Shown in pieces: positions 1 to 26,376 of a stretch of 36,288 nucleotides of DNA. The notes beneath the pieces are model-generated. The model did not search any database and was not told the DNA's origin. It saw only the letters and a list, made by a program, of their open reading frames with translations. The position numbers and the translations under genes were made by a program. This stretch comes from Candidatus Heimdallarchaeota archaeon (GTDB taxonomy: Archaea > Asgardarchaeota > Heimdallarchaeia > Heimdallarchaeales > Heimdallarchaeaceae), in the NCBI GenBank assembly GCA_021399345.1, contig JAAFKI010000057.1, positions 1-36,288 on the forward strand, written 5' to 3'. Position 1 is the first letter of the stretch; the number at the start of each line of letters is the position of its first letter.

Positions 1-3000
1 AATATTGATTCAGTTCAATATAATTGGGATAATAATGGGAGTTGGTTTTCTTTACTAAATCCGTACGATATAACTACGGGCATGTATTCGGGATGGAGAG
101 ATTTAACAATCAATACAACGGATTTCTATGAAACTAACTCTTATTTCTATACCTTCTTTTTTGATTCTGATACTCCAATAATTACATTAACTGATGCAGT
201 GAATAATTCTATATATGCACCTGGTAAATTTCTAGAATTCTTAATAACAGATGGTACAGGTTTAACATCTTTAAATTATAGTTGGGATGCTGGAACTGTT
301 CAAAGTTGGACTCCTGACCCAAGTGAACTTTACTCCACAAACTTACCCGATGTTGTAGGAACACATTTCTTAGAAATCTCTGTTAGTGATGGATTTGAAC
401 ACTTTTCCTACGCTTATTATGAGTTCTTCACAGACAATGACTTCTTCAATGTAGATTTACTGAATATTATTGAGAACGGGTACTATCAGGGAGATAATGA
501 AGTTGAACTTATTGTTCAAAGAAGCAATGGTACAGTTTACTTCAAATGGGATAGTGGAGTAGAAAAACTTGGAACGCTAGATGGAACATATTTGAAATTA
601 AATGGTTCAGATTCTTTACCTAGTACTGAAGGATTGCACGTTCTTTACATTAGAACATTTAATTTAACTTATGACGAACATTTATTCAACTTCAATTTTT
701 ATGTTGATAACACCAGTCCGACAATTAGTAATATACAAACATATGATGATGGGAGATATCTAAACAATCAAGATTTTATAATTTACATCAATGATAATTT
801 TGCAGATAATTTGACAGAGTTAGTTGTTGAATATTCGCTAAATGGAACAATATACCAAACACTAGAATATCCATTTACTTTTTCTTATCCATATTTAGAT
901 GGTTTTTATACTCTTGATATTAGAGCTCAAGATCTTGCAGGAAATATAGGAAACTACACAATTAGCTTCATTATTGATAATACTGCACCTAGTATTGAAG
1001 TAATAATTAACGAGTTAATAGATAGAATTGGTGCTGATGGTAATTATTACATTCCTCCTGATAGTCTTATTGAATTTTCTATTATTGATATTGATGCTAA
1101 CATAAATGTTTTTTACAGCTGGAATGGTACATGGACAAACATAACTGGACAGAGTAGTTTCACTTTATCTTCAGTAGATGATGGAGAAGCTATTCTGCTT
1201 GTGAGAGCTTATGATTCTTTGCTGAATGAAGGAGAATGGTTTAACATTACTTTAGCATATGATAGTACTCCTCCCGATGTAACACAAACATTTCCAACAG
1301 ATATATTTCGTATTAATGATTTCTCAAATCTTGAATTTGATATAGAAGATTTTACTCTAAAAAATATTGAATCAGTGCTCTTTCATTGGGATGATGCAGT
1401 TGGATTAGGAGAATTTGATGTTAAAGATATTGAACCATATATAGATGGACATTTTCGATTAGAACTCAACACATCAGCTAGAGTACTATACTCATATTAT
1501 GGATATAATTTAGCTAATCTTACTATATTTGCTGAAGATATTCTTGGAAATAATAAAACCTATGTGTATCACTATGAAATAGACATTACTCCTCCAAATG
1601 CTTCTTTAGAATATTTTGATCTAACCTGGATTCCAATGGAAGAAAACAATGATCCTGATTATGAAATAGCAGGTGGCTCAGCAATAAGGTATGATAACTC
1701 AACAGCTATTGATCAGTTATTTATAAGAATTCAGTGGGAAATAAATGGTGAGCTGCTAGGCTGGGAAGAACTAGATATAAATCTAAATCCTGAATTCTAT
1801 TTAGGAAATGTAGATGGTAATCATACATTGATTTTTGAGATTCATGATGATACAGGTCAAGGGGAGACACCCAATATAAAAATAGCCACTTTTAATTTTT
1901 ATGTAGATGATATGCTAATAGATTTTCTCTATCCTATTGATTTTGAAGATGATTACCCCTATAAGATAGATTATAATGACACTTTTACTTATCAAGTAAA
2001 CATCACAGACGCAGTTGATAATGAACCCATTCCAGGTCTTGTGTATGAAGTCTTCATTGATAATGAGTTGAATCTATCAGTCATAGTAACTAACATTAAT
2101 ATCACAGTTTATGAAATTACAATTCACGCTTCAAACGTTACAGACTATAATGAAACTGTAATAGATGTGTATTTCTATCGAGCTGGTGGTGGGGGACAAA
2201 CAATCCGTGTTCTTCTTAGAGTTGATAAAGTAATCGGAGTACTTAATGTTTTGGACACAATTGATACTCAAATAATGTATGAAGAAGACTTGATTATACA
2301 AATGTATATGGAAAATGATATTGGACAAAATCAGACGATTAACAACGTTCTTGTTAATGGTACGGAAATAGAAAGTTTCAGTTTCAATCTTACTACTTTC
2401 ATTTGTAGTTTCAATTATTCTTCATTCAATATCGAATCTAAGGGGAACTTTTCATTAAACATTTTTACAGATTCAACATTTTACAATGCAAGTACAAATA
2501 CTAATACAACCATCAACTTCGAAATTTTACCCTTACCCATACTAATTACAATCAGTGTTTCAAATTATACGATTTTAGAGGGAACTGCTGTAATCATTAA
2601 TGTATTGATAACTTATGAAAATGGAACACCAGTTGAATATGCGCTATTTGACTTGTATATACATGTTTATCTGAAAAATATTACAGAAACGGACACCTTT
2701 ACCCTCAATTTAGCTTATGAAGATGCTAATTATACTGAATCATTTACTGATTTAGAAACTGGACGGAATGGCAGATTTGTTACCTCTTTCACATTAAACT
2801 CTTCAATGGATTATATCATAATCGAAGGCAGCTATGAAGGTCAAGATACAACTGATGATGCTTCGTTTGTAGTAGAAGACCATATCATCACAATTCCGCT
2901 GCCTGAAGCAGTGAAATTCCCTCAATGGTTGTTATACCTTATTATAGGTGGAAGTATAGGTGTGGCTGCTATTATCTCACTCATAATCTATAAAGTTACA

Positions 3001-3564
3001 AGACCTAAATCATTTGAAGAATTGATGGAGAGAGTTACTGGTGAAGATATGGCATTAAATTATTCGATTATGTCACCCGGAGTCATTCTAACTATTTTCG
3101 ATCAGAGAAAAGGACCGATTCCATTAGTTGCTGACCATAGTTTAGATATTGGAAGATATATCGGCAGGATGAGAATAGGCGTTGAAAACTTCCTTCTTAA
3201 AATAGCTGATCAAGCTTATAGCTCACTTGGTTTTGAGGAACATGATGCAGGTAGAAGAGTAGGGTCAATTATTCTTCCATCAGAGAAGATGGTAGCTTTT
3301 GTTCATGGTGTTCAGCTAGAAAATAAAATGGCCAGAGGTGGGTTTGAAAATCTTTCTCTTATTGTTCTAGCTGATTCTGAGTTTGGTAATTTATTACTCA
3401 ACTATCAAGAATATCTTTATGGGCTTGTTGATGATTTAGGTAGTGCTTTGAAATCTAAGAAAAATCTCAAAGTTGTTGAAGATTTTATAGTTGATATTCG
3501 AAAACAATCTGTAATTATAATGCTTGCTGCTCAAGAAATGGAAAAATCACAAGGTGGAGATTAA
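1..3564 (+). CDS. Large single-pass cell-surface protein (5'-truncated): Ig-like repeats, TM helix, cytoplasmic longin/uDENN (FLCN/SMCR8-like) domain
   Basis: The frame is open from base 1 (NIDSVQYNWD...), so the start lies upstream of the window. Repeated D-x-T-x-P, Y-x-W-D and D-x-x-G-N Ig-like motifs with many N-x-S/T sequons. TM WLLYLIIGGSIGVAAIISLIIY at 2926-2991. The tail has 'VILTIFDQRKGP' and 'ENKMARGGFENLSLIVL'. Confidence 0.85.
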   Translation, partial: NIDSVQYNWDNNGSWFSLLNPYDITTGMYSGWRDLTINTTDFYETNSYFYTFFFDSDTPIITLTDAVNNSIYAPGKFLEFLITDGTGLTSLNYSWDAGTVQSWTPDPSELYSTNLPDVVGTHFLEISVSDGFEHFSYAYYEFFTDNDFFNVDLLNIIENGYYQGDNEVELIVQRSNGTVYFKWDSGVEKLGTLDGTYLKLNGSDSLPSTEGLHVLYIRTFNLTYDEHLFNFNFYVDNTSPTISNIQTYDDGRYLNNQDFIIYINDNFADNLTELVVEYSLNGTIYQTLEYPFTFSYPYLDGFYTLDIRAQDLAGNIGNYTISFIIDNTAPSIEVIINELIDRIGADGNYYIPPDSLIEFSIIDIDANINVFYSWNGTWTNITGQSSFTLSSVDDGEAILLVRAYDSLLNEGEWFNITLAYDSTPPDVTQTFPTDIFRINDFSNLEFDIEDFTLKNIESVLFHWDDAVGLGEFDVKDIEPYIDGHFRLELNTSARVLYSYYGYNLANLTIFAEDILGNNKTYVYHYEIDITPPNASLEYFDLTWIPMEENNDPDYEIAGGSAIRYDNSTAIDQLFIRIQWEINGELLGWEELDINLNPEFYLGNVDGNHTLIFEIHDDTGQGETPNIKIATFNFYVDDMLIDFLYPIDFEDDYPYKIDYNDTFTYQVNITDAVDNEPIPGLVYEVFIDNELNLSVIVTNINITVYEITIHASNVTDYNETVIDVYFYRAGGGGQTIRVLLRVDKVIGVLNVLDTIDTQIMYEEDLIIQMYMENDIGQNQTINNVLVNGTEIESFSFNLTTFICSFNYSSFNIESKGNFSLNIFTDSTFYNASTNTNTTINFEILPLPILITISVSNYTILEGTAVIINVLITYENGTPVEYALFDLYIHVYLKNITETDTFTLNLAYEDANYTESFTDLETGRNGRFVTSFTLNSSMDYIIIEGSYEGQDTTDDASFVVEDHIITIPLPEAVKFPQWLLYLIIGGSIGVAAIISLIIYKVTRPKSFEELMERVTGEDMALNYSIMSPGVILTIFDQRKGPIPLVADHSLDIGRYIGRMRIGVENFLLKIADQAYSSLGFEEHDAGRRVGSIILPSEKMVAFVHGVQLENKMARGGFENLSLIVLADSEFGNLLLNYQEYLYGLVDDLGSALKSKKNLKVVEDFIVDIRKQSVIIMLAAQEMEKSQGGD

Positions 3565-3673
3565 TCCGTCCTTTATCCTATTTCCCAGCGTCATTAACGA
3601 TATATTGATATGTATTTTTCCTGTCTATTACTTATAGATACTATTTAATAGTTATAACAAGGGGAAAAATCTC

Positions 3674-5710
3674 GTGTCCTATCTCTTCGATGAATTATCT
3701 GGAAAAAAAGGAAGTGCTACAGAGATCGAAGACAAAATTTTACTAATGGGTCTTCAGGCTGCTGGCAAAACTGCGATAAAAGATGTTGTCTTCTTCAACA
3801 AAGAACCAGAAGAGGTCAACGGATACATGGCTACTGTGCATTATCAAAGACAATTTTTAGATGAAGAACAAACCAGCATGATTATTGATTCGGGTGGACA
3901 AGAATCCTATTGGAACGAAGCTGTTACTCATTTCCGCCATCTTGTTTTTTCAAATGTAAAACTGTTAATATGGATTGTTGATGTCACTAAACCTGAATTA
4001 TTTGAAGAGTCTGAGAGACGTTTCAGTTTTACTATACGCCAATTCAAAAAAGAAAATCCTGATGGTAGTATTACTGTTTTATGTCACAAAGTAGATTTAG
4101 TTACTCCTGATCAGATGGTTGTAATTCACCAGCATGTTAGAGAGATGTTTGCTGAATCAAAATTCGAAGTTGATTTTGAAAATACTAGTATTTACTACAA
4201 AGATAGCTTAAGAGAGCTGCTTTTTACTATAATGGCAGAAGCTGGTATTAATACAAAAAGATTTGAGCTTGTTTCCAATGTTGGACAAAAAGTCGAAGAG
4301 AGCGAAGAATTCCAAAGCTATGTTTTGGAACATGCTGAAGATGAAAAAGTCGAAATTTTGAGAGATTATCTGAATCCTGAACCAACACCTCTATTGCCTA
4401 CTTTTGGAAAACTCAATTTTCAACTTGATTTAACAGACTATGACATCATCGAAATAGTTCTCATTGATAAGAAAACTCACTCACCTATTACAGGTGCTTC
4501 TTCCAATGCATCAATCTCTGCAGAGAATTCAATGGAATATCTAGTAGCTTTGCATGATTTCAAATCTAGAATTAAAGATAATACTGAAGAAATTGATCCT
4601 TCTGGTGATATTCTAACTTCTGACAGCGGTAAAGTTCATGCAATGTTGTTCGATTTAGCAAACAACTATCTCTTAATTACCTCTTTTTCCTCAATTACTG
4701 ATGAAAGAAAAGAGCTGCTTTTTCAGTTGATCCTTAAATTTGCTCAATCAACAGCTGGAGTTAGTCCACCTGAACCTACAGAACAAGTAGTGGAAGAGCC
4801 AGCTGAAGAAATTGTACCTGAACTTGAACCAATTGTTGCAGAAGTTGTAGAAGAACCAATAAAATTAACTGAAGCTGCATCCTCAACTAAAATAGAAGTA
4901 GATACCTTAGTAGACAAAGTTGTTTCTCAACCAACCAGCAAGACAGAAGAAGTTGAGATTTTTGAAGAGATTCCAGTTGTTGAAGCTGAACCAGTTCAAG
5001 CTGAAGATGAATCATTCTTCAAAAAGGAAAAAATTGTGATAACTGAGGTTGTTGTAGAACCAGAAGAAATCGTTTCAGCTCCTGTAGAAGTTCCTGAACC
5101 TGAACCAATCTCTGAAATTATGGAAGCTGTTAAAGAAGATGTTGAAGAATATCCTCCTGTTCCCGAAAAACTTGAGGAAGTTGTAGAACTACCTGAAACT
5201 CCAACTGTAGAAGTGGAAGAAATCGTTAGAGAAGAAAAACTTGGCCCTTCACCAGAATCATTAGATATGAAATTAAAACAACAATTTTCAGACATAGTGG
5301 AAGAAAGGGAAGTAAAAATCGAGGAACCCTCGGAATCAATGACTCCACCAATTCCACAAGTTATGAAAGTTGTTGAAGAAGTTACAGCTCAAGACACTAT
5401 TTCAGAACCAGTAGTTGTGGAAGAAGCAGTTCCTGAACCAGAACCAGTAGTAGTCATGGAAGATCCTTCTCCTGAACCAGTTCAAGAAGAAGCTAGTACA
5501 ACAGATACTTCTATAGATTTTTCTGCAGCTGATATTCAAGATTTCGCTAGTTTTCTAGTTCAGAAAAAAGAGATTATTTTAGATGAAGATTTCAAACTAG
5601 AAGACATGGAAATAAAGATGGATGATATCAAGAGTTTGTCAGCTTACTTATTCAGTGGATCAGAAAAGAAACCAGAAAAAATTAAAGAAGAAATAAAAAC
5701 AACTGACTAA
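3674..5710 (+). CDS. Rag/Gtr-like small GTPase with roadblock/longin-like domain and long acidic Glu/Pro/Val-rich tail
   Basis: KILLMGLQAAGKT (G1), ATV (G2), DSGGQ (G3), HKVD (G4) and TSI (G5) follow the Gtr1/RagA pattern. GTG start. Confidence 0.85.
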   Translation: MSYLFDELSGKKGSATEIEDKILLMGLQAAGKTAIKDVVFFNKEPEEVNGYMATVHYQRQFLDEEQTSMIIDSGGQESYWNEAVTHFRHLVFSNVKLLIWIVDVTKPELFEESERRFSFTIRQFKKENPDGSITVLCHKVDLVTPDQMVVIHQHVREMFAESKFEVDFENTSIYYKDSLRELLFTIMAEAGINTKRFELVSNVGQKVEESEEFQSYVLEHAEDEKVEILRDYLNPEPTPLLPTFGKLNFQLDLTDYDIIEIVLIDKKTHSPITGASSNASISAENSMEYLVALHDFKSRIKDNTEEIDPSGDILTSDSGKVHAMLFDLANNYLLITSFSSITDERKELLFQLILKFAQSTAGVSPPEPTEQVVEEPAEEIVPELEPIVAEVVEEPIKLTEAASSTKIEVDTLVDKVVSQPTSKTEEVEIFEEIPVVEAEPVQAEDESFFKKEKIVITEVVVEPEEIVSAPVEVPEPEPISEIMEAVKEDVEEYPPVPEKLEEVVELPETPTVEVEEIVREEKLGPSPESLDMKLKQQFSDIVEEREVKIEEPSESMTPPIPQVMKVVEEVTAQDTISEPVVVEEAVPEPEPVVVMEDPSPEPVQEEASTTDTSIDFSAADIQDFASFLVQKKEIILDEDFKLEDMEIKMDDIKSLSAYLFSGSEKKPEKIKEEIKTTD

Positions 5711-5727
5711 ATTTCTTTTAATTATTT

Positions 5728-6978
5728 TTAAACAGGTCTGCTATCATCATAACGGCGATATTCTAATTGCCCATCAAGGAAGATAGGTACTTCTCTTATT
5801 CCTTCAACACATTCATGTGAGGGAAATAGTTCAACTGATATCGCTCCAAAACCTTTTTGGATCTTTATTCCTCTTTCTAGCTGTTCAGCATTCTCTACAG
5901 CTACATCGATAATGGACTTCTGGAGGTTTCTTCCACAAACATCGCATTTGTAATTAATATTTTGTTCAATCCTTCTTTCGAGCAGATCAGTTTTTTCAAT
6001 TCCATTCTTTACGAGATAACTTTCTAAAGATCCTTTAACTTTAATTCTTGCACGGCCAATTAGTTCATCGGTTTGGAATAATTGTTTCATTTCTGTAGCA
6101 AGTGTGTTAAAGTACTCTATCTCTCTATCTACATCTAAATTAGGCGGAAAAACAGTTGTTAAAACTAAATCTGTATCAATTTCCTTCATGTAAACTCGGC
6201 TGTCATCAAAGGAGAAAGTAGCATATTCCAGCATTAAAGTTTGAGAAAACATCTTTGCTAAATCGTTTTTAAGTTTAACAAAATTAAAGCCTGTATATTT
6301 TTCAGGTTGAGAATATAACATTAAACCTTGAGCTGTAGAAAGAGAAAGAAATGCTAAATCTTGCTTGCTGAAAGTTTCTTTTATTTTAACTGATTTTGTG
6401 TCATCTTTTGGATAAACAAAGGCTAGTATTTGTTGCATTGCATCCCAGATTGTTTCTTCGAAGATTGAAGTTCCCATCAGTTCTGCATTTGGGAAATCGT
6501 CTATCTCAAAAATATCTTTAATAGATTGTAAAACAGGTTCTCGTTTATTGGGCGCAACAACATCCATCTTATGTGCAAAAACATAAATTTTAGATCCTTC
6601 TGCCAATTTGACAGCATTTTCCATAGTTAGATCGAAATAATACTTGGATCTCATAATATTGGATGCATCGGATATATCAACTACGAAAATGAAAGCTTTG
6701 GTGTCACTGAACGTTCTTTCTTGGTATTGCTCAAAAACTTCGTTTAAATAGTTAGATTGACCACCAACATCGAACAAGTTAATGGAACTCCCTGCAAGGT
6801 TGAACAGTTTTCTGTTGATACGTACAGTTGCTGGATTCATAGATGTTGCTTCAGGTGCAAAACCTTCAAAAACAACTTGTCGAATGGAAGTCTTTCCAGA
6901 TTGGGATAACCCTAGTACTACGATTTTAGACTCTAATTCATTCTCTCCTGCATACATAAGCTTCACGTTTTCTTTCAT
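5728..6978 (-). CDS. Rag/Gtr-like small GTPase with roadblock-like domain and C-terminal CxxC...HxC Zn-ribbon
   Basis: GLSQSGKTSIRQVVF, ATV, DVGGQ, HKMD, TSIF. Roadblock-like segment 'LSLSTAQGLMLY...VYMKEIDTDLVLTTVF'. C-terminal CDVC...HEC. Confidence 0.85.
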   Translation of the reverse strand: MKENVKLMYAGENELESKIVVLGLSQSGKTSIRQVVFEGFAPEATSMNPATVRINRKLFNLAGSSINLFDVGGQSNYLNEVFEQYQERTFSDTKAFIFVVDISDASNIMRSKYYFDLTMENAVKLAEGSKIYVFAHKMDVVAPNKREPVLQSIKDIFEIDDFPNAELMGTSIFEETIWDAMQQILAFVYPKDDTKSVKIKETFSKQDLAFLSLSTAQGLMLYSQPEKYTGFNFVKLKNDLAKMFSQTLMLEYATFSFDDSRVYMKEIDTDLVLTTVFPPNLDVDREIEYFNTLATEMKQLFQTDELIGRARIKVKGSLESYLVKNGIEKTDLLERRIEQNINYKCDVCGRNLQKSIIDVAVENAEQLERGIKIQKGFGAISVELFPSHECVEGIREVPIFLDGQLEYRRYDDSRPV

Positions 6979-8742: not shown

Positions 8743-9738
8743 TTAAACAAATTCTAGTTTGTTAATTTTTAAGAATCCCTCATAAACCAAATGACTCATT
8801 ACAAAGAGAAATTCGTTGAAACTTTGATTTATGTCCATTTCTTTGTATGAATATAGAATTGATTTTTCCTGATTAGTTAAGAAATATACCATAATATCTT
8901 TGCAGAGAATTCTTAGGTTAGGACTCATTTCACTAAAAAGAATAGCTTGTTCAGTATTAAATCTTCTAAACTCATCAGATGAAGATTTTGGAAAGGCAAT
9001 TGTAGAACTAACTAGAAGATCCAATTCAACTAAATTTCTTTCTGTAGGTTCCTCAATGATATTCTCATCAATGAATTCAGCAATTAATTTTAAAAAAATT
9101 TCATCGAGAAAAACTGAGGTTTCAAGGATGTTTGCAGCATGTTGAATCCACTTTCTTGTTCCAGCAAATGGAAAAGACTTTTTTCTCGAATCTTGGGTAG
9201 ATTTAAGCTTTTGTTTCCACTCCTTATATATTCTATTTGTAACCTTTTCAGAGATGAAAACTTGCACTTCAATGAACCCTAAGATTGACTTAATGGTAAG
9301 TTTCTTACCTTCTTCACTCTTCTCAAAAATATACGTTACATTTCGAATTTTGTCTTTTATCTCAAGACCAGTAATATTTATTCTTTTAAAATTTGGAGCT
9401 TCAAATACTTTTTTTGACATAGCAACCTTTTGGGGAATTGGTATTCCAAGAGATTTATACATTTCATTTTCATCAGGAACTGAGGAAAAATCTCGATCAG
9501 TCTCATATCCATAGTGAGTCGATTTTATATGTACTTGTGATCTAACCGTTCGAGAACTGTCTATAAAGCATTTAACAGCTGATAAATTATTTTGATCACA
9601 TTTGTGAACATCAACGAATTCTAAGATAGTTGATAGTGTATCTGTTTGCAACAACCTTGATGGGATGTTTAAGTTTCGTTGCTTCTGGCATTTATTGCAT
9701 TGATATTCAATATTTTTTATGCCACTCTCACTACTCAA
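8743..9738 (-). CDS. Hypothetical protein with N-terminal CxxC...HxC Zn-ribbon and possible C-terminal winged helix
   Basis: 331-aa ORF with TTG start. YQCNKC...VHKC...FID...VR at the N-terminus. Ends 'FLFVMSHLVYEGFLKI'. Confidence 0.65.
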   Translation of the reverse strand: MSSESGIKNIEYQCNKCQKQRNLNIPSRLLQTDTLSTILEFVDVHKCDQNNLSAVKCFIDSSRTVRSQVHIKSTHYGYETDRDFSSVPDENEMYKSLGIPIPQKVAMSKKVFEAPNFKRINITGLEIKDKIRNVTYIFEKSEEGKKLTIKSILGFIEVQVFISEKVTNRIYKEWKQKLKSTQDSRKKSFPFAGTRKWIQHAANILETSVFLDEIFLKLIAEFIDENIIEEPTERNLVELDLLVSSTIAFPKSSSDEFRRFNTEQAILFSEMSPNLRILCKDIMVYFLTNQEKSILYSYKEMDINQSFNEFLFVMSHLVYEGFLKINKLEFV

Positions 9739-11364: not shown

Positions 11365-13155
11365 ATGAAGAAAAGAAAAATAGTTCTTTTTATAATTTTT
11401 TTCCTAATTATTACACCTTATTTAGTTGCAGGGCAAGAAACAGAGATACCAATTCGTTTTAGTATTAGCCTTCTTTCCCCCAATGATAATGCTGCTAGAA
11501 AGCAGTTTTCACTTCTTATGCAGCATCAATTACCCAAGATAGGCATTGGAGTTCACTTGCATGAATCGACAACTTGGGGCAACATAGCTGATAGGTCGTG
11601 GTCATATCCGTTGATAGATTATGATTATATCCCAACTTATGCTGAAGGTGGGTATGATATTCTTTTTGTAAAATGGTCATGGGATTTAGAATGGGACCCA
11701 ACTGGGGTTTTTGATTGCTCTTACTTAAGCTGTCTACTTCATGGGGACAATTTTTATCAATATCATAATCCTAACTATGATACCAAATTAGCTCAATATC
11801 TAACAGAACTGGACCCTTTCCAGAGAACAGCATACTCTCATGAAATGCAAGCAATGCTCTATGAAGATCTTCCAGCTATTAGTATTGTATATCCGAAATC
11901 ATTAGCTGCTTCTAAGGAGGGTTTAGTAGGAATTGATTATCTTCTGCTATCACTTGCTAAACATCGTTCTGAAAAATGGGATGATCCGTCAGATCATATT
12001 ATAAAAACTGCAGTCCCAGAAACAATGAATGCTTTCAATGATTTCAATGAGAGAACCATAATCGACAGAAAATGGTTAACATCTGTGTATGGTTCTCTTT
12101 TCCAAAGAGGTCAAAATCACCACGGATGGGAACCAATAATTGCTTTGAATTATAGCTTAAGTACAGATGGAAAAAACTACACAATAGCAATTGATCAAAA
12201 TGCTATGTTTTCTGATGGTTCTCCACTTCTAGCAGAAGATATTAAATATACTTACAATCTTCATATGACACCTGCAGTTAATTCAGTAAATTATGGATAT
12301 TTTAACAGATGGTTAGCATCAAATGATTCAATAGAGATTATTGATTCACATACTTTGAATTTCAATCTATCTTCAACTTATGCTTTTTCGATGAATTTAT
12401 TCTCAATCGGAATTCTAGATAAAAGTAATGTAGAACCAGCAATTAGTACTTATGGTTATTCAATATTCGAAGAAGAACCTCTTACCGGAGATGTTCAAGA
12501 CACTCTTGTGACCTCATGTGGTCCATTTATGTTAGAAAACTACTCAAGCACTAACGTTAAGCTAATACAGAATCCATATTGGAATAAGTTGAATTCATCA
12601 CAAGGTTCGCAACCATACTTAGATGAGTTATCCTTTATCTATTACAAGGGTAAGGATAGTACACTTGCAGATTTAATTTCAAATAAAATAGATTTAATTG
12701 ATCCAGAATTAGGAATAACACCAAGTGCAGATTTTTGGGGTTATGATATAGAAGGGCATCTAGTTCAGAAACTAGAAAACCAGGAACTAGCTGTTAACAT
12801 GAAACATCCTGTTTTTGGAACAGGTGAACTGACTCCCGTAGGAACTCCAGCTGCAGCTAAAAGTGTAAGAAAAGCTATTAGTCATGCAATCCCGAGAAAC
12901 GTAATAGTTGACCAAATCTATGAGGGACTTGCATCTCCTGGTGTGTCTCCAATACCCAAAGGTTGTATAGGTTTTGACCAATCATTAGAACCGTATGCCT
13001 ATGATTTAGATATAGCTGTTGAGCATATAGAGGATGCTGGATTTGTAACAATGTGGAGCGGGACTGATTTTACACCAACATCTGGTTTTACTATTTCAGT
13101 TTTGCTCTTTGTCTTGATAGGCTTAGCATATCTTAGTTTTACAGGGAGAGGATAA
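11365..13155 (+). CDS. ABC-type peptide/nickel solute-binding protein (family 5), circularly permuted, with C-terminal membrane anchor
   Basis: Signal peptide MKKRK plus a hydrophobic run. Family motifs S-x-DGK-x-YT, FSDGSPLLAEDIKYT, GPF, NPYW and VRKAISHAIPR. C-terminal SGF, TM and basic end. Confidence 0.85.
   Translation: MKKRKIVLFIIFFLIITPYLVAGQETEIPIRFSISLLSPNDNAARKQFSLLMQHQLPKIGIGVHLHESTTWGNIADRSWSYPLIDYDYIPTYAEGGYDILFVKWSWDLEWDPTGVFDCSYLSCLLHGDNFYQYHNPNYDTKLAQYLTELDPFQRTAYSHEMQAMLYEDLPAISIVYPKSLAASKEGLVGIDYLLLSLAKHRSEKWDDPSDHIIKTAVPETMNAFNDFNERTIIDRKWLTSVYGSLFQRGQNHHGWEPIIALNYSLSTDGKNYTIAIDQNAMFSDGSPLLAEDIKYTYNLHMTPAVNSVNYGYFNRWLASNDSIEIIDSHTLNFNLSSTYAFSMNLFSIGILDKSNVEPAISTYGYSIFEEEPLTGDVQDTLVTSCGPFMLENYSSTNVKLIQNPYWNKLNSSQGSQPYLDELSFIYYKGKDSTLADLISNKIDLIDPELGITPSADFWGYDIEGHLVQKLENQELAVNMKHPVFGTGELTPVGTPAAAKSVRKAISHAIPRNVIVDQIYEGLASPGVSPIPKGCIGFDQSLEPYAYDLDIAVEHIEDAGFVTMWSGTDFTPTSGFTISVLLFVLIGLAYLSFTGRG
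12796..13023 (+). repeat. Copy 1 of a 228-bp near-identical direct repeat inside the SBP paralogues
   Basis: Manual alignment to 14588-14815 is ungapped, with about 20 mismatches. Confidence 0.9.
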
Positions 13156-13159
13156 GAAA

Positions 13160-14947
13160 ATGAAAAAAAAGAACAAATTAACTATTTTAGCTTTAGTTTT
13201 ATTAATTTTGGCACCTTGTTTGATTGCAGGACAGGAAACTCCGATGCCAATTTATTTCAGCATCAACCTTCTTTCCCCCAATGATGATGTTTTTAGAAAT
13301 CAGTTTTCAATACTTATACAAGAACAATTACCATTAATTGGTATAGGTGTTGATATACATGAATCAACTACTTTGGATAAAATAGCTCCCAGAACATGGT
13401 TTTATCCTCTTATTGATTATGACTATATTCCTACTTATGCTCAGGGGGGATTTGATGCCCTCTTTGCAGGATATTCCTGGGATTTGGATTGGGATTCAGG
13501 AAATATCTTTACCAGTGGATGTATGGCTAGCAGAGCAAACTTCTATCAATACAATAATCCACAATTAGATGCAAAATTAATTCAGTATCTTAGTGAACCA
13601 GATTCTGTATTAAGAACAGAATATTTGCACGAAATCCAAGCAATACTCTATGAAGACCTTCCATCAATTAGTTTGGTTTATCCAAAATTAATGTATATAT
13701 GTAAAGAGGGTTTAACTGGAATTGACCTTTTGTTATTATCTTTGTCAAAATTCCGAGCTGAAAATTGGGATGATCCTGCAGATCATATTATTAAATATCC
13801 TATCCCTATAATGCTAGAAGCCCAGAATGTTTATCGCGAAACATCCGATTATGACAGCAAATGGATGGCAGCTGTTTATGGCTCACTCTTTGAAAGAAGT
13901 CAAATATTTCATGAATGGGAGCCAGTAATTGCCACTAATTATAGTTTAAGTTCAGATGGAAAGAATTATACAGTGTATTTAGATCCAAATGCGAAATTCA
14001 GTGATGGCAGTTCTGTTTTGGCAGAGGATGTAAAATATTCGTATGAACTCCATATGACACCACTAGTTAATTCGCCAGACTATTGGTATTTAGATGCTAA
14101 TTTTGCATCTAACAATTCAATAGAAATTGTCGACACTCATACATTGAATTTTAATTTATCAAGTTTTTATGCATTCGCGATGGATTTACTTTCTTTTGGT
14201 GTTGTGGATAAGAGCAGTATAGAACCTGCTATTAGCACTTTTGGGTACTCAATTTTTGATGAAAATCCTTTATCTGGAAACGTTCAAGACATTTTGATTA
14301 AATCTTGTGGTCCATTTATGCTAGATAATTACTCTACAACAAAAGTTGAACTTATACAAAATCCCTACTGGAATGATTTGAGTTCTTCAAATGGTTTCCA
14401 ACCAAAACTTACTGATTTGCAATTTATTTATTATGGAGTAGGAAGAGATTCAGTTATAGCTGATTTGATTGCTGGTATAATTGACTTTTATGATCCAGGT
14501 TTTGGAATCTGGTGGTATGTAGAATTTTCTTACTATGGTTTAGAAGGAGGAATAGTAGGAAGCCTAACAAACCAAGAATTGGCTTTGAACATGAAACATC
14601 CTGTTTTTGGAACAGGAGAACTGACTCCCGTAGGAACTCCAGCAGCAGCAAAAGCAATACGCAAAGCTATCAATCATGCAATCCCGAGAGACGTAATAGT
14701 CGATCAAATCTATGAAGGATTGGCATCTCCTGGTGTGTCTCCAATACCCATAGGTTGTATAGGTTTTGACCAATCATTAGAACCCTATGCATATGATTTA
14801 GATATAGCTGTTGAGTATATGGAAGATTCAGGTTTTGACACGATAATTATATTCACTCGTGTAACACCATCATCAGGATTTACTATATTTCTTATTCTCT
14901 TTACTCTGATAGGTTTAACTTATCTTGTATTCACAAGAAGAAGGTAA
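13160..14947 (+). CDS. Tandem paralogue: family-5 solute-binding protein, circularly permuted
   Basis: Same motifs and motif order as 11365-13155. C-terminal 'TPSSGF', TM and RRR. Confidence 0.85.
   Translation: MKKKNKLTILALVLLILAPCLIAGQETPMPIYFSINLLSPNDDVFRNQFSILIQEQLPLIGIGVDIHESTTLDKIAPRTWFYPLIDYDYIPTYAQGGFDALFAGYSWDLDWDSGNIFTSGCMASRANFYQYNNPQLDAKLIQYLSEPDSVLRTEYLHEIQAILYEDLPSISLVYPKLMYICKEGLTGIDLLLLSLSKFRAENWDDPADHIIKYPIPIMLEAQNVYRETSDYDSKWMAAVYGSLFERSQIFHEWEPVIATNYSLSSDGKNYTVYLDPNAKFSDGSSVLAEDVKYSYELHMTPLVNSPDYWYLDANFASNNSIEIVDTHTLNFNLSSFYAFAMDLLSFGVVDKSSIEPAISTFGYSIFDENPLSGNVQDILIKSCGPFMLDNYSTTKVELIQNPYWNDLSSSNGFQPKLTDLQFIYYGVGRDSVIADLIAGIIDFYDPGFGIWWYVEFSYYGLEGGIVGSLTNQELALNMKHPVFGTGELTPVGTPAAAKAIRKAINHAIPRDVIVDQIYEGLASPGVSPIPIGCIGFDQSLEPYAYDLDIAVEYMEDSGFDTIIIFTRVTPSSGFTIFLILFTLIGLTYLVFTRRR
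14588..14815 (+). repeat. Copy 2 of the 228-bp direct repeat
   Basis: Matches 12796-13023 at about 91% by hand count. Confidence 0.9.
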
Positions 14948-17308: not shown

Positions 17309-18715
17309 TTAATCAAGAATTTCAATTAAAGGCATTTTATCTCTAAATTTAACTACTTTAGGTAAGAATGTTGCACCTAATGAGCTCTTTAGACACTCAA
17401 TATAAGTTGTATAATCTGACCTCGAGAATCGAATAATAATGTCTGCTGTGTTGCGTAATCTTGCTAACATTTCTCTACTTATAGCATTAAAGTTAATAAA
17501 AGAATAAGCTATCGCGCTTTGTTCTTTAATATTGAATGATTGTAAAGCAAAATATCTTAAGAAATTGGGTTCTGTGAGTATATTTGTATCATCTGTGAGA
17601 TCTCCAAAGAGAATTACTTTTTGCTCTGATTTCTGAAATGCTTGCATTAATTCAACCGTTACTGAAATCATATCATCAGTAGTCATCAGCTGACTCATTT
17701 CTCTTGCTTCAACAGCTGTTACAGATCGATTATATTTGTCAATGAAAACAACATTACCTTCATTTAAATGGGGAGTAATGTCACATTCAACTCTCTTGAA
17801 TTCTTCTACTATGCGAGCAGAATACATATGAACATTAGAATGAATAATTACACCTGTACCTCTTTCAAGATTGCAACACATAATTTGTAGGAATAAAGGA
17901 AAATAATTTGTTTCCCCATCTGTCTCAATAAGAACAACGCTTCCAGCAGGAATGCCCCCTCCAAGCATTTTATCTAGTTTTTCAACACCTATCTTCTCAG
18001 CATCTATTATAGATAAAGGAGGTTGTTCAGAGCGTAATATCGATACACCATCTCTGTCAATAATGAATCTATTTTCGAATTTGATAGGTTTAGCAGATCT
18101 TAGTTTTGGTACAGAAATTCTCTTTATCATCTGATTGTTTTTCAATTCTGTTCGAATCTTAATTACTCCATCAACAAGGTATTCTTCTAATGTTGAATAT
18201 TCTTCATTTACTTGAGATTCAGAAGTTAGTACAAGAACTGCCTTCTTATCAGTGATTTCTCTAATAAAATCCATGAAGCTGCTTCTAGCTGTTTTTTCAT
18301 AAACAAATTCAGCAAAAAATGCAGAAATGGAATCAAAGATTACAAGCTTTGCATTTAGTGATTTCATCTTACTTTGAGTTCTAGCAATAATCCCTGAGAG
18401 ATCAAATTTATCAGTTTGAACTAAACTTGTACTTTTTGGTTTTAAAGACATTTTTTCAAAGCTTAAAAGCCCTTTGTCAATATATGATTTAAGATTCATA
18501 TCGAATGAATCTCCATACATTATCAATTTTTCAGGATCAACTTCTGTAGAAATGAATAATACAGGAATATCTTTCTTTAGAGCTCCAAGTGCCATAAATA
18601 GTGAAAGAACTGTTTTGCCTGATCCAGCAGATCCCTTAATAGCATAACAAGAACCAGTTCTTAAACCACCATCAATCATATTGTCTAGCTCTTCAATCCC
18701 AGTTGAAATAATCAT
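17309..18715 (-). CDS. KaiC/RAD55-like double-domain RecA-fold ATPase, second domain degenerate
   Basis: STGIEELDNMIDGG, Walker A GSAGSGKT, Walker B VIFDS, EEYLVDGVI and KLR. The second repeat starts GVEKLDKMLGGGIP and has no Walker A lysine. Confidence 0.85.
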   Translation of the reverse strand: MIISTGIEELDNMIDGGLRTGSCYAIKGSAGSGKTVLSLFMALGALKKDIPVLFISTEVDPEKLIMYGDSFDMNLKSYIDKGLLSFEKMSLKPKSTSLVQTDKFDLSGIIARTQSKMKSLNAKLVIFDSISAFFAEFVYEKTARSSFMDFIREITDKKAVLVLTSESQVNEEYSTLEEYLVDGVIKIRTELKNNQMIKRISVPKLRSAKPIKFENRFIIDRDGVSILRSEQPPLSIIDAEKIGVEKLDKMLGGGIPAGSVVLIETDGETNYFPLFLQIMCCNLERGTGVIIHSNVHMYSARIVEEFKRVECDITPHLNEGNVVFIDKYNRSVTAVEAREMSQLMTTDDMISVTVELMQAFQKSEQKVILFGDLTDDTNILTEPNFLRYFALQSFNIKEQSAIAYSFINFNAISREMLARLRNTADIIIRFSRSDYTTYIECLKSSLGATFLPKVVKFRDKMPLIEILD

Positions 18716-23589: not shown

Positions 23590-24600
23590 ATGTCCTTCTA
23601 TGAATTCCGAAAACGTATTTTAGAGGAGAAGCAAAAACGAGAAAAGCAACAACGTAAACAAGAGCGGACAGGGGGAGAAAAGCAAGAATCAGTTGTAGGG
23701 AGAAACAAGTTTAGTGTCGCATTATTAGGTCTAGAAAGAGCTGGTAAAACATCTTTAGTAAAGAAATTGCTTAAGCAGGAAGATATTGTGGTTAGACCCA
23801 CATATGGAGTTAATCTAGAAAACTATCAATATCGTGATCTGAATTTCACATGTTTTGATCTAGGAGGGCATCAACCCTTCAGACTAAGTTTATGGAAGAA
23901 ATTTATTGAAAGAGCTGATTCAGTAATCTATCTAGTTGATTCAGCTGATCATGTAAGATTTGAAGAATCAAAACAAACATTTTGGCATTACATAAACTTT
24001 GCAAAACAAAGTGCTCCTGTGCTATTTCTAGCAAACAAAAGTGATTTACCGAATTCAAAAGAACTAACTGAGATTAACGAAGCTTTCGAATTAGACAAGT
24101 TCTTGAGAAATCTTAGACCATTTAACATAAAGAAAGTTTCAGCGCTAACTGGTCAAGGAGTATATGAAGCGTGGGACTGGGTAGTGGACGTTTTGTGTGG
24201 CGCGCAACAATGGAAAGTTAAGATTGGTGCTGCTGTTTTAGCTGATATAAGTGGTAATATTATCTCTGAAGCTATCTTCGGCAGACCTACTGATCAAGCT
24301 GAAATTGCTAATGATTATAAGAAGTTAAAAGAATTAACTAGAATGTTTGCTATTGATTCTAAAGAAAGCATACAATCTGTTAAATTGGAAAGTTTGTTTA
24401 AAAAGCATGTCAGTCACGTTAAGAGAGGTGCTTACTGTTTATCCGTTATGATTGATCCTATTGATCCTGTCACAAGAGCTCAACAAATCCAACTTAGAAT
24501 TCTTGAGAATTTTAGTCGAAATCCTGTAGAAGTTAAAAAGAATCTCAATGATGTGTTTGAGAGTAAGTTTCCACTAGAAGTTGAAGGAGGAAGACGTTAA
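23590..24600 (+). CDS. Arf/Sar1-family small GTPase with C-terminal longin-like domain
   Basis: GLERAGKT, PTYG, DLGGH, IYLVDSAD, NKSD and SALTGQG. Confidence 0.88.
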   Translation: MSFYEFRKRILEEKQKREKQQRKQERTGGEKQESVVGRNKFSVALLGLERAGKTSLVKKLLKQEDIVVRPTYGVNLENYQYRDLNFTCFDLGGHQPFRLSLWKKFIERADSVIYLVDSADHVRFEESKQTFWHYINFAKQSAPVLFLANKSDLPNSKELTEINEAFELDKFLRNLRPFNIKKVSALTGQGVYEAWDWVVDVLCGAQQWKVKIGAAVLADISGNIISEAIFGRPTDQAEIANDYKKLKELTRMFAIDSKESIQSVKLESLFKKHVSHVKRGAYCLSVMIDPIDPVTRAQQIQLRILENFSRNPVEVKKNLNDVFESKFPLEVEGGRR

Positions 24601-25596
24601 TTGAGTAATTATCTTTCCTTTATCAGAGACAAGTTGATTTCTTCTCAAGAACAGAAAATTCCCCAACTTGTTATATTAGGACTTGAAGGGTCAGGAAAAT
24701 CCAGTGTTGTTAGTCGTTTAATATATGGAACTATTTCTGATGGACAACCTCCTCAGTTAACTTGTTACATTAACGTTACTTATGGTAAATCTGTCATTAC
24801 TGTTCTTGAAGCAGATGAAGAAACTGCTAGAGAAAGCCCTTATTTCCAAGATATTTTAGGTAAAATTGATGGGATTGTCTTTGTTATTGATGGGCAATCC
24901 GTACGCCACATAGAGGCATCATTTGAGTATATTTTTAGTCTATTTGATAAAATTCCTCAAACAACCTCTATATTATTCTTGGCGAATAAAACAGATTTAC
25001 CAGATTCAGTACCTTTCCCAGATTTACTTCAGGATCCAGCATTTCAAGTAATCATGGATGATATTAATCGTTCAGTTTCTATTTATCCTGTAAGCATTAA
25101 AACTGGTGAAAATTTCTATACAGCTTTTGACTGGATTATTTCCAGGATGACAGGCAGAACACCATTGAGAGAAGAAGTTAATCCTAAAAGAGTTATCATT
25201 CTTCAAGAAGGCGGTGTTCCTGCATTTGATCATACTTTTGATAAATCAATAGAAGAGCATGACAGTACTTTACTGGGTGGTTTAATTAGTGCTCTAAACA
25301 TTATGGCTTCTACTATTTTTGAAAGTGAATCAGTAATGGATGTTGTCAAACTTGGTTTGATTAAAATGGTAATTCGAAAGATGAACTCTTGGAGTATCGT
25401 ATTATTCGTTGATCGAGATGATAGTGAATCAAAAGCACAATCTCTAGCAGAAGAGATTCTTAATGCTTTCATTGAAGATAAAGAACGTGATCCAACGAAA
25501 GAGATGCCAAGACAAATCAAATATGAATTTTTGTCTAAAATCCCTGAAATAGCTATATTGCTAGATCAACAACCATTAAAAAAAGAAGAATATTGA
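24601..25596 (+). CDS. Degenerate Arf-like GTPase (pseudo-GTPase candidate) with C-terminal longin domain
   Basis: GLEGSGKS, NKTD and SIKTGE are present, but G2 PT and G3 DxxG are lost (EADEE). Longin-like 'IILQEGGVPAF...DSTLLGGLISAL'. TTG start after GAAGGAGG. Confidence 0.8.
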   Translation: MSNYLSFIRDKLISSQEQKIPQLVILGLEGSGKSSVVSRLIYGTISDGQPPQLTCYINVTYGKSVITVLEADEETARESPYFQDILGKIDGIVFVIDGQSVRHIEASFEYIFSLFDKIPQTTSILFLANKTDLPDSVPFPDLLQDPAFQVIMDDINRSVSIYPVSIKTGENFYTAFDWIISRMTGRTPLREEVNPKRVIILQEGGVPAFDHTFDKSIEEHDSTLLGGLISALNIMASTIFESESVMDVVKLGLIKMVIRKMNSWSIVLFVDRDDSESKAQSLAEEILNAFIEDKERDPTKEMPRQIKYEFLSKIPEIAILLDQQPLKKEEY

Positions 25597-25605
25597 GGAA
25601 AAAAA

Positions 25606-26376
25606 ATGATAAATCCAAATGTAAGTAAAGAGCCAGTTTTGGTATTTAGTATCTTTAAAGACTATGGCCCTGAAATTTTGTTTAATAATTCTACACTTGA
25701 AGAAAATGTAGCTCTTACTCTGGTAATGCAAGGAATGACATTAGTTGAAATGGACAAAGGTTCAATTGGAAGAGTGGATGGAACTAAGAATCCAAAGATG
25801 CTTGGACCGCTTCCAGTACCTGAAAATGAACAACTGAAAGCAATAGTTATTCCTTTTGAAACAGAAATAACCTCCTCAACAGATGAAAGAATTGCAGCAG
25901 CTGGGTATCGTCTATGTGTAGCTTATTTCCTTTTTGAAGGAAGTGCTGTTAGAGATGTTTTAGATAGTTATGGACTAATAGAACCGTACTTCACTCTTAT
26001 TGGTAGAAGTCTGCAAAAAGAATCTGCCATCAACCCCACCTCAATTAAGCAGCTCTACACAAGAATGATAGATATGTTCTCTGGAAAAATACCTAGAATT
26101 TACGCTATTAATTCTGATAATTCTCTTAAAGAAATGATTGGTAAAAGATTGGAATATGCTGATACTTATCTTCTATGTGATTTGGATAAGAAAATAATGT
26201 ATATTCTATTGTATAACCCCTCAATGGATGTTTGGAGAAGAAGAGATATCTTCAAAGTTGCTTCAGAACTTAACTCAAGCATGTTCAGAAGCTCAATGAG
26301 AATAAATACCATAGACGATGTTAAAGAAATGGTAAGGATACTTGAAATTCTGAATATAGAAATTGCTCCCGTTTAA
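25606..26376 (+). CDS. uDENN/longin-like domain protein with possible C-terminal gelsolin-like domain
   Basis: LVFSIFKDYGP...MLGPLPVP...DER. C-terminal DTYLLCD...IMYIL...RRDIFKVASELN. Confidence 0.6.
   Translation: MINPNVSKEPVLVFSIFKDYGPEILFNNSTLEENVALTLVMQGMTLVEMDKGSIGRVDGTKNPKMLGPLPVPENEQLKAIVIPFETEITSSTDERIAAAGYRLCVAYFLFEGSAVRDVLDSYGLIEPYFTLIGRSLQKESAINPTSIKQLYTRMIDMFSGKIPRIYAINSDNSLKEMIGKRLEYADTYLLCDLDKKIMYILLYNPSMDVWRRRDIFKVASELNSSMFRSSMRINTIDDVKEMVRILEILNIEIAPV

Follow-up and report, generated by a model that had tools for sequence, protein, structure and literature searches.

The first 36,288 bases of contig C182, from the assembly of a Heimdallarchaeia archaeon (3.27 Mb in 199 contigs, 88.6% complete), are referred to here as the window. 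They open with three neighbouring genes: one for a giant surface protein, which we call the receptor, and two for GTPases of the Gtr1_RagA family, RagL and RagS (Table 1). The first-pass annotation of this DNA had described a surface protein followed directly by two Rag/Gtr-like GTPases, and had proposed that the cytoplasmic longin domain of the former acts as a GTPase-activating protein (GAP) on the latter. Both GTPases do belong to the Gtr1_RagA family, but only RagL lies on the strand of the receptor, after a gap of 109 bp, whereas RagS is convergent, being read from the minus strand. The receptor reading frame is open at its 5' end, since the window begins at base 1 of the contig. The alignment of the window copy with full-length relatives, which measure about 1590-1605 aa, starts near residue 420 of the latter, so that approximately 420 N-terminal residues are absent from the window copy.

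Table 1. Position of the features discussed in the text. Coordinates refer to the window, except for the fusion proteins of other Asgard genomes, which are given as locus:positions.
Feature	Position (nt)	Strand	Residues	Remarks
Receptor gene	1..3564	+	1187 of ~1600 aa	probable type I giant surface protein; 5' end cut by contig end
Ectodomain	1..2925	+	1-975	repeated Ig-like modules, sequon-rich
Single transmembrane helix	2926..2991	+	976-997	sole hydrophobic segment; K-V-T-R-P-K after it
Cytoplasmic tail	2995..3561	+	999-1187 (189 aa)	N-terminal helix and predicted longin domain
F-D-Q-x-x-G-P-x-P motif	3097..3123	+	1033-1041	end of strand 1/start of strand 2; G1038-P1039 is the GP motif
A-R-G-G-x-E-N loop	3331..3351	+	1111-1117	between strands 4 and 5; R1112 at nt 3334-3336
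RagL	3674..5710	+	678 aa	GTG start; Gtr1_RagA 3.9e-26
RagL, G domain			~21-190	
RagL, conserved middle			190-365	
RagL, linker			366-603	acidic/Pro-rich
RagL, conserved C-terminal motif			604-678	
RagS	5728..6978	-	416 aa	Gtr1_RagA 2.4e-31
RagS, G domain	6409-6930	-	17-190	
RagS, roadblock-type domain	6079-6402	-	193-300	predicted; followed by a helix
RagS, C2HC module	5731-5961	-	340-416	putative zinc-type module
Longin-Rag fusion	L109:1538-2947			Folliculin-type longin and Gtr1_RagA-type GTPase
Longin-Rag fusion	L110:1613-3052			Folliculin-type longin and Gtr1_RagA-type GTPase
Longin-Rag fusion	L114:1155-2012			Folliculin-type longin and Gtr1_RagA-type GTPase
Ras-longin fusion	L113:229-1302			longin C-terminal to Ras-family GTPase
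Longin-winged helix fusion	L111:1030-1767			longin N-terminal to ArsR-type winged helix
CxxC open reading frame	8743-9738	-	331 aa	no Pfam match
Solute-binding protein genes	11365-14947			two in tandem, SBP_bac_5 (1e-49, 1e-43)
KaiC-type ATPase gene	17309-18715	-		double-domain, KaiC 7.9e-51
Arf-family GTPase genes and following frame	23590-26376			Arf 6.5e-39 and 1.5e-14
Open reading frame after the Arf genes	25606-26376		256 aa	no Pfam match

The receptor has the features of a type I single-pass protein: one transmembrane (TM) helix, basic residues on its C-terminal side and an enrichment in N-x-S/T sequons that is confined to the ectodomain. The latter contains 38 sequons, as compared to 13.8 ± 3.2 in shuffled sequence, and they are scarce elsewhere (2 in the tail, 2 and 0 in the two GTPases). 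Pfam recognises an immunoglobulin (Ig)-like Big_13 domain at aa 267-327 (nt 799-981). A signal-like hydrophobic segment opens most of the full-length relatives; the N-terminus of the window copy lies off the contig. The first-pass description of a surface protein of more than 1180 aa, with an Ig-like ectodomain, one TM helix and a tail of about 190 aa, is thus correct. On the basis of the TM helix and its basic flank, the excess of sequons and the signal-like start of the relatives, the receptor is probably a type I surface protein that is N-glycosylated and exposes the tail to the cytoplasm. Conservation is much stronger in the tail than in the ectodomain (76% vs. 37%, for example), and the latter diverges about twice as fast. 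This is what would be expected of a constrained cytoplasmic module below a fast-evolving surface part.

An exhaustive HMMER search for homologues of the tail gave 49 cluster representatives. The domain is C-terminal in every representative longer than about 900 aa, the remaining ones being short or partial sequences. The AlphaFold2 (AF2) model of the tail, calculated from an alignment of 35 tails, has a predicted local distance difference test (pLDDT) of 92.8 and a predicted TM-score (pTM) of 0.89. Its topology, an N-terminal helix followed by β-β-α-β-β-β-α-α, is that of a longin domain. In a Foldseek search of the PDB the best match to this model was the longin domain of a Lokiarchaeota Roadblock-Longin protein (8yqg, 5.6e-6), next came FLCN (8dhb_J, 7.5e-4, 23% identity), and then Lst4, a chain of the GATOR1 complex and a chain of the C9orf72-SMCR8 complex. 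The VIA comparison gave a top tier formed by 8yqg (Z 12.7), Lst4 (12.0), entries of the C9orf72-SMCR8 complex (11.5-11.7) and FLCN (11.4-11.5), and a lower one with entries of the GATOR1 complex (8.5-9.7) and the longins of SNARE, TRAPP and adaptor proteins (about 8-9). When the shape of the tail was searched in the ESM-Atlas, Asgard GTPase-longin fusions and a Heimdall cluster partly annotated as Folliculin were retrieved, together with the eukaryotic clusters 'uDENN FLCN/SMCR8-type', C9orf72 and SMCR8.

At the sequence level, Folliculin (PF11704) was the only Pfam family that recurred, matching 18 of the 35 tails with a best E-value of 1.8e-4. The match spans tail residues 102-157 and includes the arginine loop discussed below. 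Soluble Asgard homologues match the hidden Markov model (HMM) of the tail at 1e-11 to 1e-13, and two of them (L109 with 24.0 bits and L112 with 27.7 bits) pass the Folliculin cut-off of 23.3 bits. The sequence link between tail and Folliculin is therefore a transitive one. Taken as modelled, the tail is a longin domain of the class of FLCN, SMCR8, C9orf72 and Lst4. The longin fold on which the first-pass proposal depended is borne out by the AF2 model, Foldseek, VIA and Atlas comparisons, and by the residues described in the next paragraph.

Across the 35 tails, the invariant positions are F-D-Q-x-x-G-(P/A)-x-P, D72, S76, F80, R-G-G-x-E-N and R169, and the alanine that precedes R-G-G is nearly invariant. 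G1038 and P1039 are the first residues of predicted strand 2 (tail residues 40-48); a few close paralogues have G-A at this position. R1112 was invariant in every alignment made. A wider alignment of 12 rows was built from TM-anchored tails of several subfamilies and from Rag-fused, Ras-fused, helix-turn-helix (HTH)-fused and free homologues. In this alignment the sole invariant columns are the G-P before strand 2 and the R-G in the loop between strands 4 and 5. The longins of GAP type (FLCN, NPRL2, SMCR8 and C9orf72) are marked by a GP motif located immediately before strand 2 or where it begins and by a nearby catalytic arginine, both of which are absent from non-GAP longins (PMC12290439). 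The same two marks have been reported in a class of Asgard longins, for which the partner GTPases, Rag or Arf-related, were left open (PMC12290439). In FLCN, Arg164 (R164) sits in the nucleotide pocket of RagC (PMC9473554). Judging from the alignments, the two invariant marks of the tail are those that define GAP-type longins, and R1112 is a candidate arginine finger that may be equivalent to R164 of FLCN and R147 of SMCR8 and may lie close to the GP motif in space.

Two other roles of the tail have to be considered at this point. The tail could be a longin platform that is tethered to the cell membrane and brings the Rag pair to it, beneath the receptor, with no catalysis, as Ragulator/Ego does for Rags and as the SRX longin domain of SR-alpha does in holding SR-beta. 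Such a role would agree with the closeness of the longin and roadblock folds (Ego3, LAMTOR and an MK-D1 roadblock appear at Z 7.2-7.7 in the VIA list for the tail), with the fact that a second longin subunit was not found in this genome, and with the gene linkage and fusions reported below, which show partnership and not catalysis. We regard it as rather unlikely, however, because what is invariant across architectures is the GP and Arg of the GAP class, not a hydrophobic dimer or platform surface, and because the nearest folds are longins of GAP complexes, not Ragulator or SRX. The tail could also be a guanine nucleotide exchange factor (GEF) for the Rag-like GTPases, or a stabiliser of their nucleotide-free state. 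Most longin/DENN and roadblock platforms act as GEFs (DENN, Mon1-Ccz1, TRAPP), the longin fold is common to them and to the tail, and the longins of DENND1 and TRAPP are present among the structural matches (Z about 8). An exchange factor is nevertheless very unlikely, given that the GP motif and the arginine are lacking in non-GAP longins (PMC12290439) and that the top structural tier for the tail is the GAP class.

The assignment of the two GTPases is clear, with Gtr1_RagA profile scores of 92.3 bits for RagL and 109.4 bits for RagS, where the cut-off is 22. Among solved structures, Gtr1 and RagA are the closest to both proteins, and RagC/D and Gtr2 come next. The G1 motif, the switch II D-x-x-G-Q with its glutamine and the H-K-x-D motif are intact in the two proteins (GLQAAGKT, DSGGQ and HKVD in RagL; GLSQSGKT, DVGGQ and HKMD in RagS), and all of these are invariant in the orthologues. 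As regards the roadblock-like C-terminal domain that had been attributed to each GTPase, the evidence supports it for RagS but does not show it for RagL. The AF2 model of RagS, which derives from a shallow alignment (pLDDT 67), shows an α-β-β-α-β-β-β-α arrangement in the region that follows the G domain, and Foldseek aligned about 300 columns of it to full-length RagA, Gtr1 and RagC (E 6e-14); a C-terminal roadblock domain is therefore supported by the model. For RagL, 20 orthologues were scanned with Pfam, and neither a roadblock nor a longin match was obtained. The comparison of its middle domain with the roadblock domain of RagS gave a profile-profile probability of 0.2%, and the whole-protein profile comparison of RagL and RagS gave an alignment limited to the G domains. 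Atlas feature matches of the RagL middle domain are a lead only. The prediction of a complex of RagS, RagL 1-365 and the tail with custom alignments had a score of 0.00, which speaks neither for nor against binding.

Some peculiarities of the two proteins that the first-pass annotation did not list were also observed. The C-terminus of RagS is a small β-rich module with invariant C345, C348, H388 and C390, and the protein ends with the near-invariant L-E-Y-R-R-Y-x-x-S-R-P. The 300-aa RagS-like paralogues of family f5 (f numbers are our labels for families) do not have the zinc-type module. In RagL, the acidic, Pro-rich and probably disordered linker varies from 50 to 246 aa in orthologues; residues 366-678 (window 4769-5707) comprise this linker, with 20-29% D/E, and the short conserved motif that closes the protein. 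RagL-like proteins of 650-740 aa recur beside paralogous receptors.

The conservation of the gene neighbourhood, which the first-pass annotation had named as a check on its proposal, was examined in 20 loci around RagS orthologues from three genera of family f1 and from family f7, in which the identities fall to about 50-57%. The order and orientation found in the window, with the receptor tail followed by RagL on the same strand and by a convergent RagS, are kept in 19 of them; in the twentieth, RagS comes directly after the receptor. In class-wide scans, nearly all RagS orthologues had a tail no more than about 3 kb away or were located at a contig end. In a sample of 201 Asgard genomes, strong matches to the C-terminal tail were restricted to four families, namely f1, f5 and f7 of the Heimdallarchaeia and one other. 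Both the tail match and the RagS orthologue are missing from seven f1 genomes, and one of the seven is a single-contig genome (G007, about 92% complete), whose congener G006 has both.

The association with Rag-like genes recurs outside the orthologous loci. Fifteen paralogous receptors (1,450-3,670 aa; families f1, f5 and f21) lie directly beside such genes, in different arrangements: some form a trio with a RagL-like gene (650-740 aa) and a RagS-like one (300 aa), others have a single one of these two types beside them, either RagS-like or RagL-like, and others again a gene of 180-199 aa that encodes just the G domain. In five genomes, a Rag-like gene (PF04670, E ≤ 1e-10) was present within 3 kb of the gene ends for 9 of the 34 tails listed, where a rough calculation from gene density, made on related genomes that are not independent, would give about 0.6. 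In the tree of tails, sequences group by type of partner (4 label changes vs. 13.8 in shuffles), in a manner partly confounded with taxonomy.

In other Asgard families there are proteins of about 470-500 aa that begin with the homologous longin and consist for the remainder of a Gtr1_RagA-type GTPase. The protein from L109, for instance, combines the Folliculin match given above with a Gtr1_RagA match of 3.4e-23. A longin-GTPase(-roadblock) build has been described for MK-D1 (PMC10933270). Read at the level of domain composition, the longin-Rag fusions suggest, independently of gene order, that this type of longin works with Rag-type G domains. The same build is apparently present in most genomes of family f14.

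Taken together, the conserved gene order, the paralogous receptors beside Rag-like genes and the longin-Rag fusions make a functional link between tail and Rag well supported; the expected conservation of the neighbourhood holds in the orthologous loci, is echoed in the paralogous ones and has a counterpart in single proteins. That the genes are neighbours by descent or chance might be argued from the many paralogous tails with no Rag neighbour. We consider it extremely unlikely, since it has to account for a trio kept across two families, for independent arrangements that recur in paralogues, for the joint absence of tail and RagS in relatives, one of them a single-contig genome, and for single-protein fusions in other lineages.

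The reading that we favour is that the locus encodes a membrane-anchored regulator of Rag GTPases, the tail of which acts as an arginine-finger GAP; we judge the chances of its being right or wrong to be about even. According to this proposal, the tail would dock onto the nucleotide face of one of the two Rag-type GTPases, and R1112, next to G1038-P1039, would be supplied as an arginine finger, so that GTP hydrolysis would become faster. RagS would be the more likely client than RagL, because RagS-type GTPases are the more constant neighbours of the tail. As a speculation, two receptor tails might pair, as the simplest means of obtaining a two-longin platform like that of the eukaryotic GAPs; such pairing is proposed because the tail has no FNIP/NPRL3-like partner domain and the genome has no clear paralogue of it. 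If a ligand or cell contact clustered the ectodomains, this could then determine the nucleotide state of a Rag pair close to the membrane.

Several observations weigh against this proposal. The window tail itself scores 12 bits with Pfam Folliculin, which is under the gathering cut-off of 23.3, and searches of PDB sequences with the tail alone, with the profile of 35 rows and with a profile of a distant subfamily did not reach FLCN, SMCR8 or NPRL2. All three eukaryotic GAP complexes use a DENN domain and a second longin subunit. The receptor stops 189 aa beyond the TM helix, with the longin as its only cytoplasmic domain, and the same genome, at its 88.6% completeness, contains no further clear member of the tail family. 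Among longin and roadblock platforms, GEFs and scaffolds are the more common. RagL and RagS are both closer to RagA/Gtr1 than to RagC/Gtr2. Moreover, the linkage is not universal: 25 of the 34 tails listed in the five genomes have no Rag gene nearby, most paralogous tails of family f5 have no Rag neighbour, and none is present in the neighbourhood of the distant tail-bearing proteins of L015 and L016. Finally, fusions of the same longin to a Ras-family GTPase and to an ArsR-type winged helix also occur (Table 1), hence Rag need not be its only client.

The direction of signalling is a separate question. The Rag-like GTPases could act from inside to outside, via the tail, on the export, placement, clustering, turnover or adhesion of the receptor. 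The same tail terminates adhesin-like proteins whose length ranges from 1,450 aa to over 10,000 aa, often in tandem arrays, the ectodomains evolve fast and gene linkage is silent on direction, all of which would suit this possibility. It gives no reason, on the other hand, for the catalytic-type marks being conserved above all other residues, and we consider it unlikely; being compatible with a GAP role of the tail, it competes with the favoured reading on direction only. As to the size and arrangement of the tail-bearing genes, the tail is also found at the end of open frames as long as 8,800-10,400 aa (G066:C193, G061:C10, G048:C87 and G065:C52), and such genes are often in tandem, with three in a row on G013:C160 and two each in L048 and L053.

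Among known systems, the GAP that most resembles the proposed one is Folliculin-FNIP (Lst7-Lst4 in yeast), a longin-DENN GAP for RagC/D (Gtr2) (PDB 8dhb, 6nzd, 6ulg, 4zy8; PMC9473554). It shares with the tail a longin fold of the top tier, the GP motif before strand 2, the conserved arginine in the loop and the association with the Rag family. It differs in that the tail has no DENN or FNIP-like partner, its sequence similarity is below threshold and its activity is predicted only. Moreover, Folliculin-FNIP is soluble and recruited to the lysosome, whereas here the longin forms the cytoplasmic end of a giant surface protein that crosses the membrane once. GATOR1 NPRL2-NPRL3, which acts on RagA/B, and C9orf72-SMCR8, which acts on Arf, belong to the same class of catalytic longins with a GP motif and an arginine finger (PMC12290439). 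Entries of C9orf72-SMCR8 are as close to the tail as FLCN, while those of GATOR1 are more distant (see the Z values above). Unlike the tail, both are soluble multi-subunit complexes.

The Asgard GP-motif longins (PMC12290439), 8yqg and the MK-D1 longin-GTPase-roadblock fusions (PMC10933270) are of the same domain family as the tail. They are soluble or fused to the GTPase, whereas the longin of the receptor follows a huge ectodomain and a TM helix in one protein, and separate neighbouring genes encode the GTPases. Two adjacent Rag-type GTPases are found, as here, in an operon of MK-D1 (PMC10933270), and RagS resembles the Asgard Rag-like GTPases of the LokiRagO/LokiRagM structures (PDB 8yl2, 8zla, 9m28) in consisting of a G domain and a predicted roadblock domain. 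The long acidic tail of RagL, the C2HC module of RagS and the link of the pair to a receptor gene set the locus apart from both. A small GTPase encoded together with a regulator of the roadblock/longin superfamily is also known from MglA-MglB (PMC9481161). In that system and in the conservon the regulator is a free roadblock protein, the sensor is kinase-like and the GTPases are of MglA/Ras and not of Rag type. The conservon in question is CvnA-D of Streptomyces, made of a GTPase, a roadblock regulator and a membrane sensor.

The first-pass annotation had stated that no eukaryotic protein fuses these parts. For FLCN-type longins the statement is a reasonable one, but receptor-GAPs are a known type of protein, of which plexins are an example. 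These receptors cross the membrane once and carry on the cytoplasmic side a GAP domain for Rap, which is activated by dimerisation. They are alike in principle, with an ectodomain, one TM helix and a GAP, and differ in having a RasGAP-like fold and an unrelated client GTPase and in being eukaryotic only.

Already known are the GP-motif Asgard longins, the Rag-like pairs and the longin-GTPase fusions (PMC12290439, PMC10933270; PDB 8yqg, 8yl2, 8zla). In the literature searched we found no account of a giant single-pass surface protein that has an FLCN-type longin for its tail, nor any mention that such a longin is linked to a Rag pair in a conserved manner. A receptor-tethered FLCN-type longin is an architecture with no known eukaryotic counterpart. 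On the question of the partners of the GP-motif longins left by PMC12290439, the locus points to Rag. In addition, gene order rarely pairs Asgard GTPases with regulators (PMC10933270), and the locus and its relatives supply such a pairing through a conserved neighbourhood, joint presence or absence and fusion proteins. The GAP hypothesis for this proposed archaeal receptor-to-Rag switch is directly testable, since its parts are small, soluble and easy to express.

In eukaryotes, Rag GTPases and their longin GAPs (FLCN and GATOR1) control TORC1. A bolder idea, tentative and in our opinion doubtful, is that the FLCN-type longin/Rag module began as a cell-surface device. Pairing of the tails by ligand or contact would build a GAP platform that switches a Rag heterodimer, in an outside-in pathway predating lysosomes and TOR, and the nutrient switch of eukaryotic Rags would have been derived later.

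The remainder of the window contains other genes of some interest. On the minus strand, the 331-aa open reading frame (ORF) that begins with a CxxC segment has a possible equivalent in a relative (L013), where a 330-aa gene, also with no Pfam match, lies at the matching position after an amine oxidase gene. Its CxxC segment matches the RagS zinc module weakly (E 0.03), but the BLASTP match covers only a 16-residue CxxC stretch, and an earlier suggestion that the two proteins have the zinc module in common is not supported at the sensitivity of this search. Likewise, homology to the receptor tail had been suggested for the frame that follows the two adjacent Arf-family GTPase genes; hhalign, run on the single sequence, assigned it a probability of 0.2%, which does not support it. 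The Pfam matches of the two tandem solute-binding proteins, which are of family 5, start no earlier than about aa 255, and the pair has no adjoining genes for a permease or an ATPase. Farther along, on the minus strand, the window encodes a KaiC-type ATPase with a double domain.

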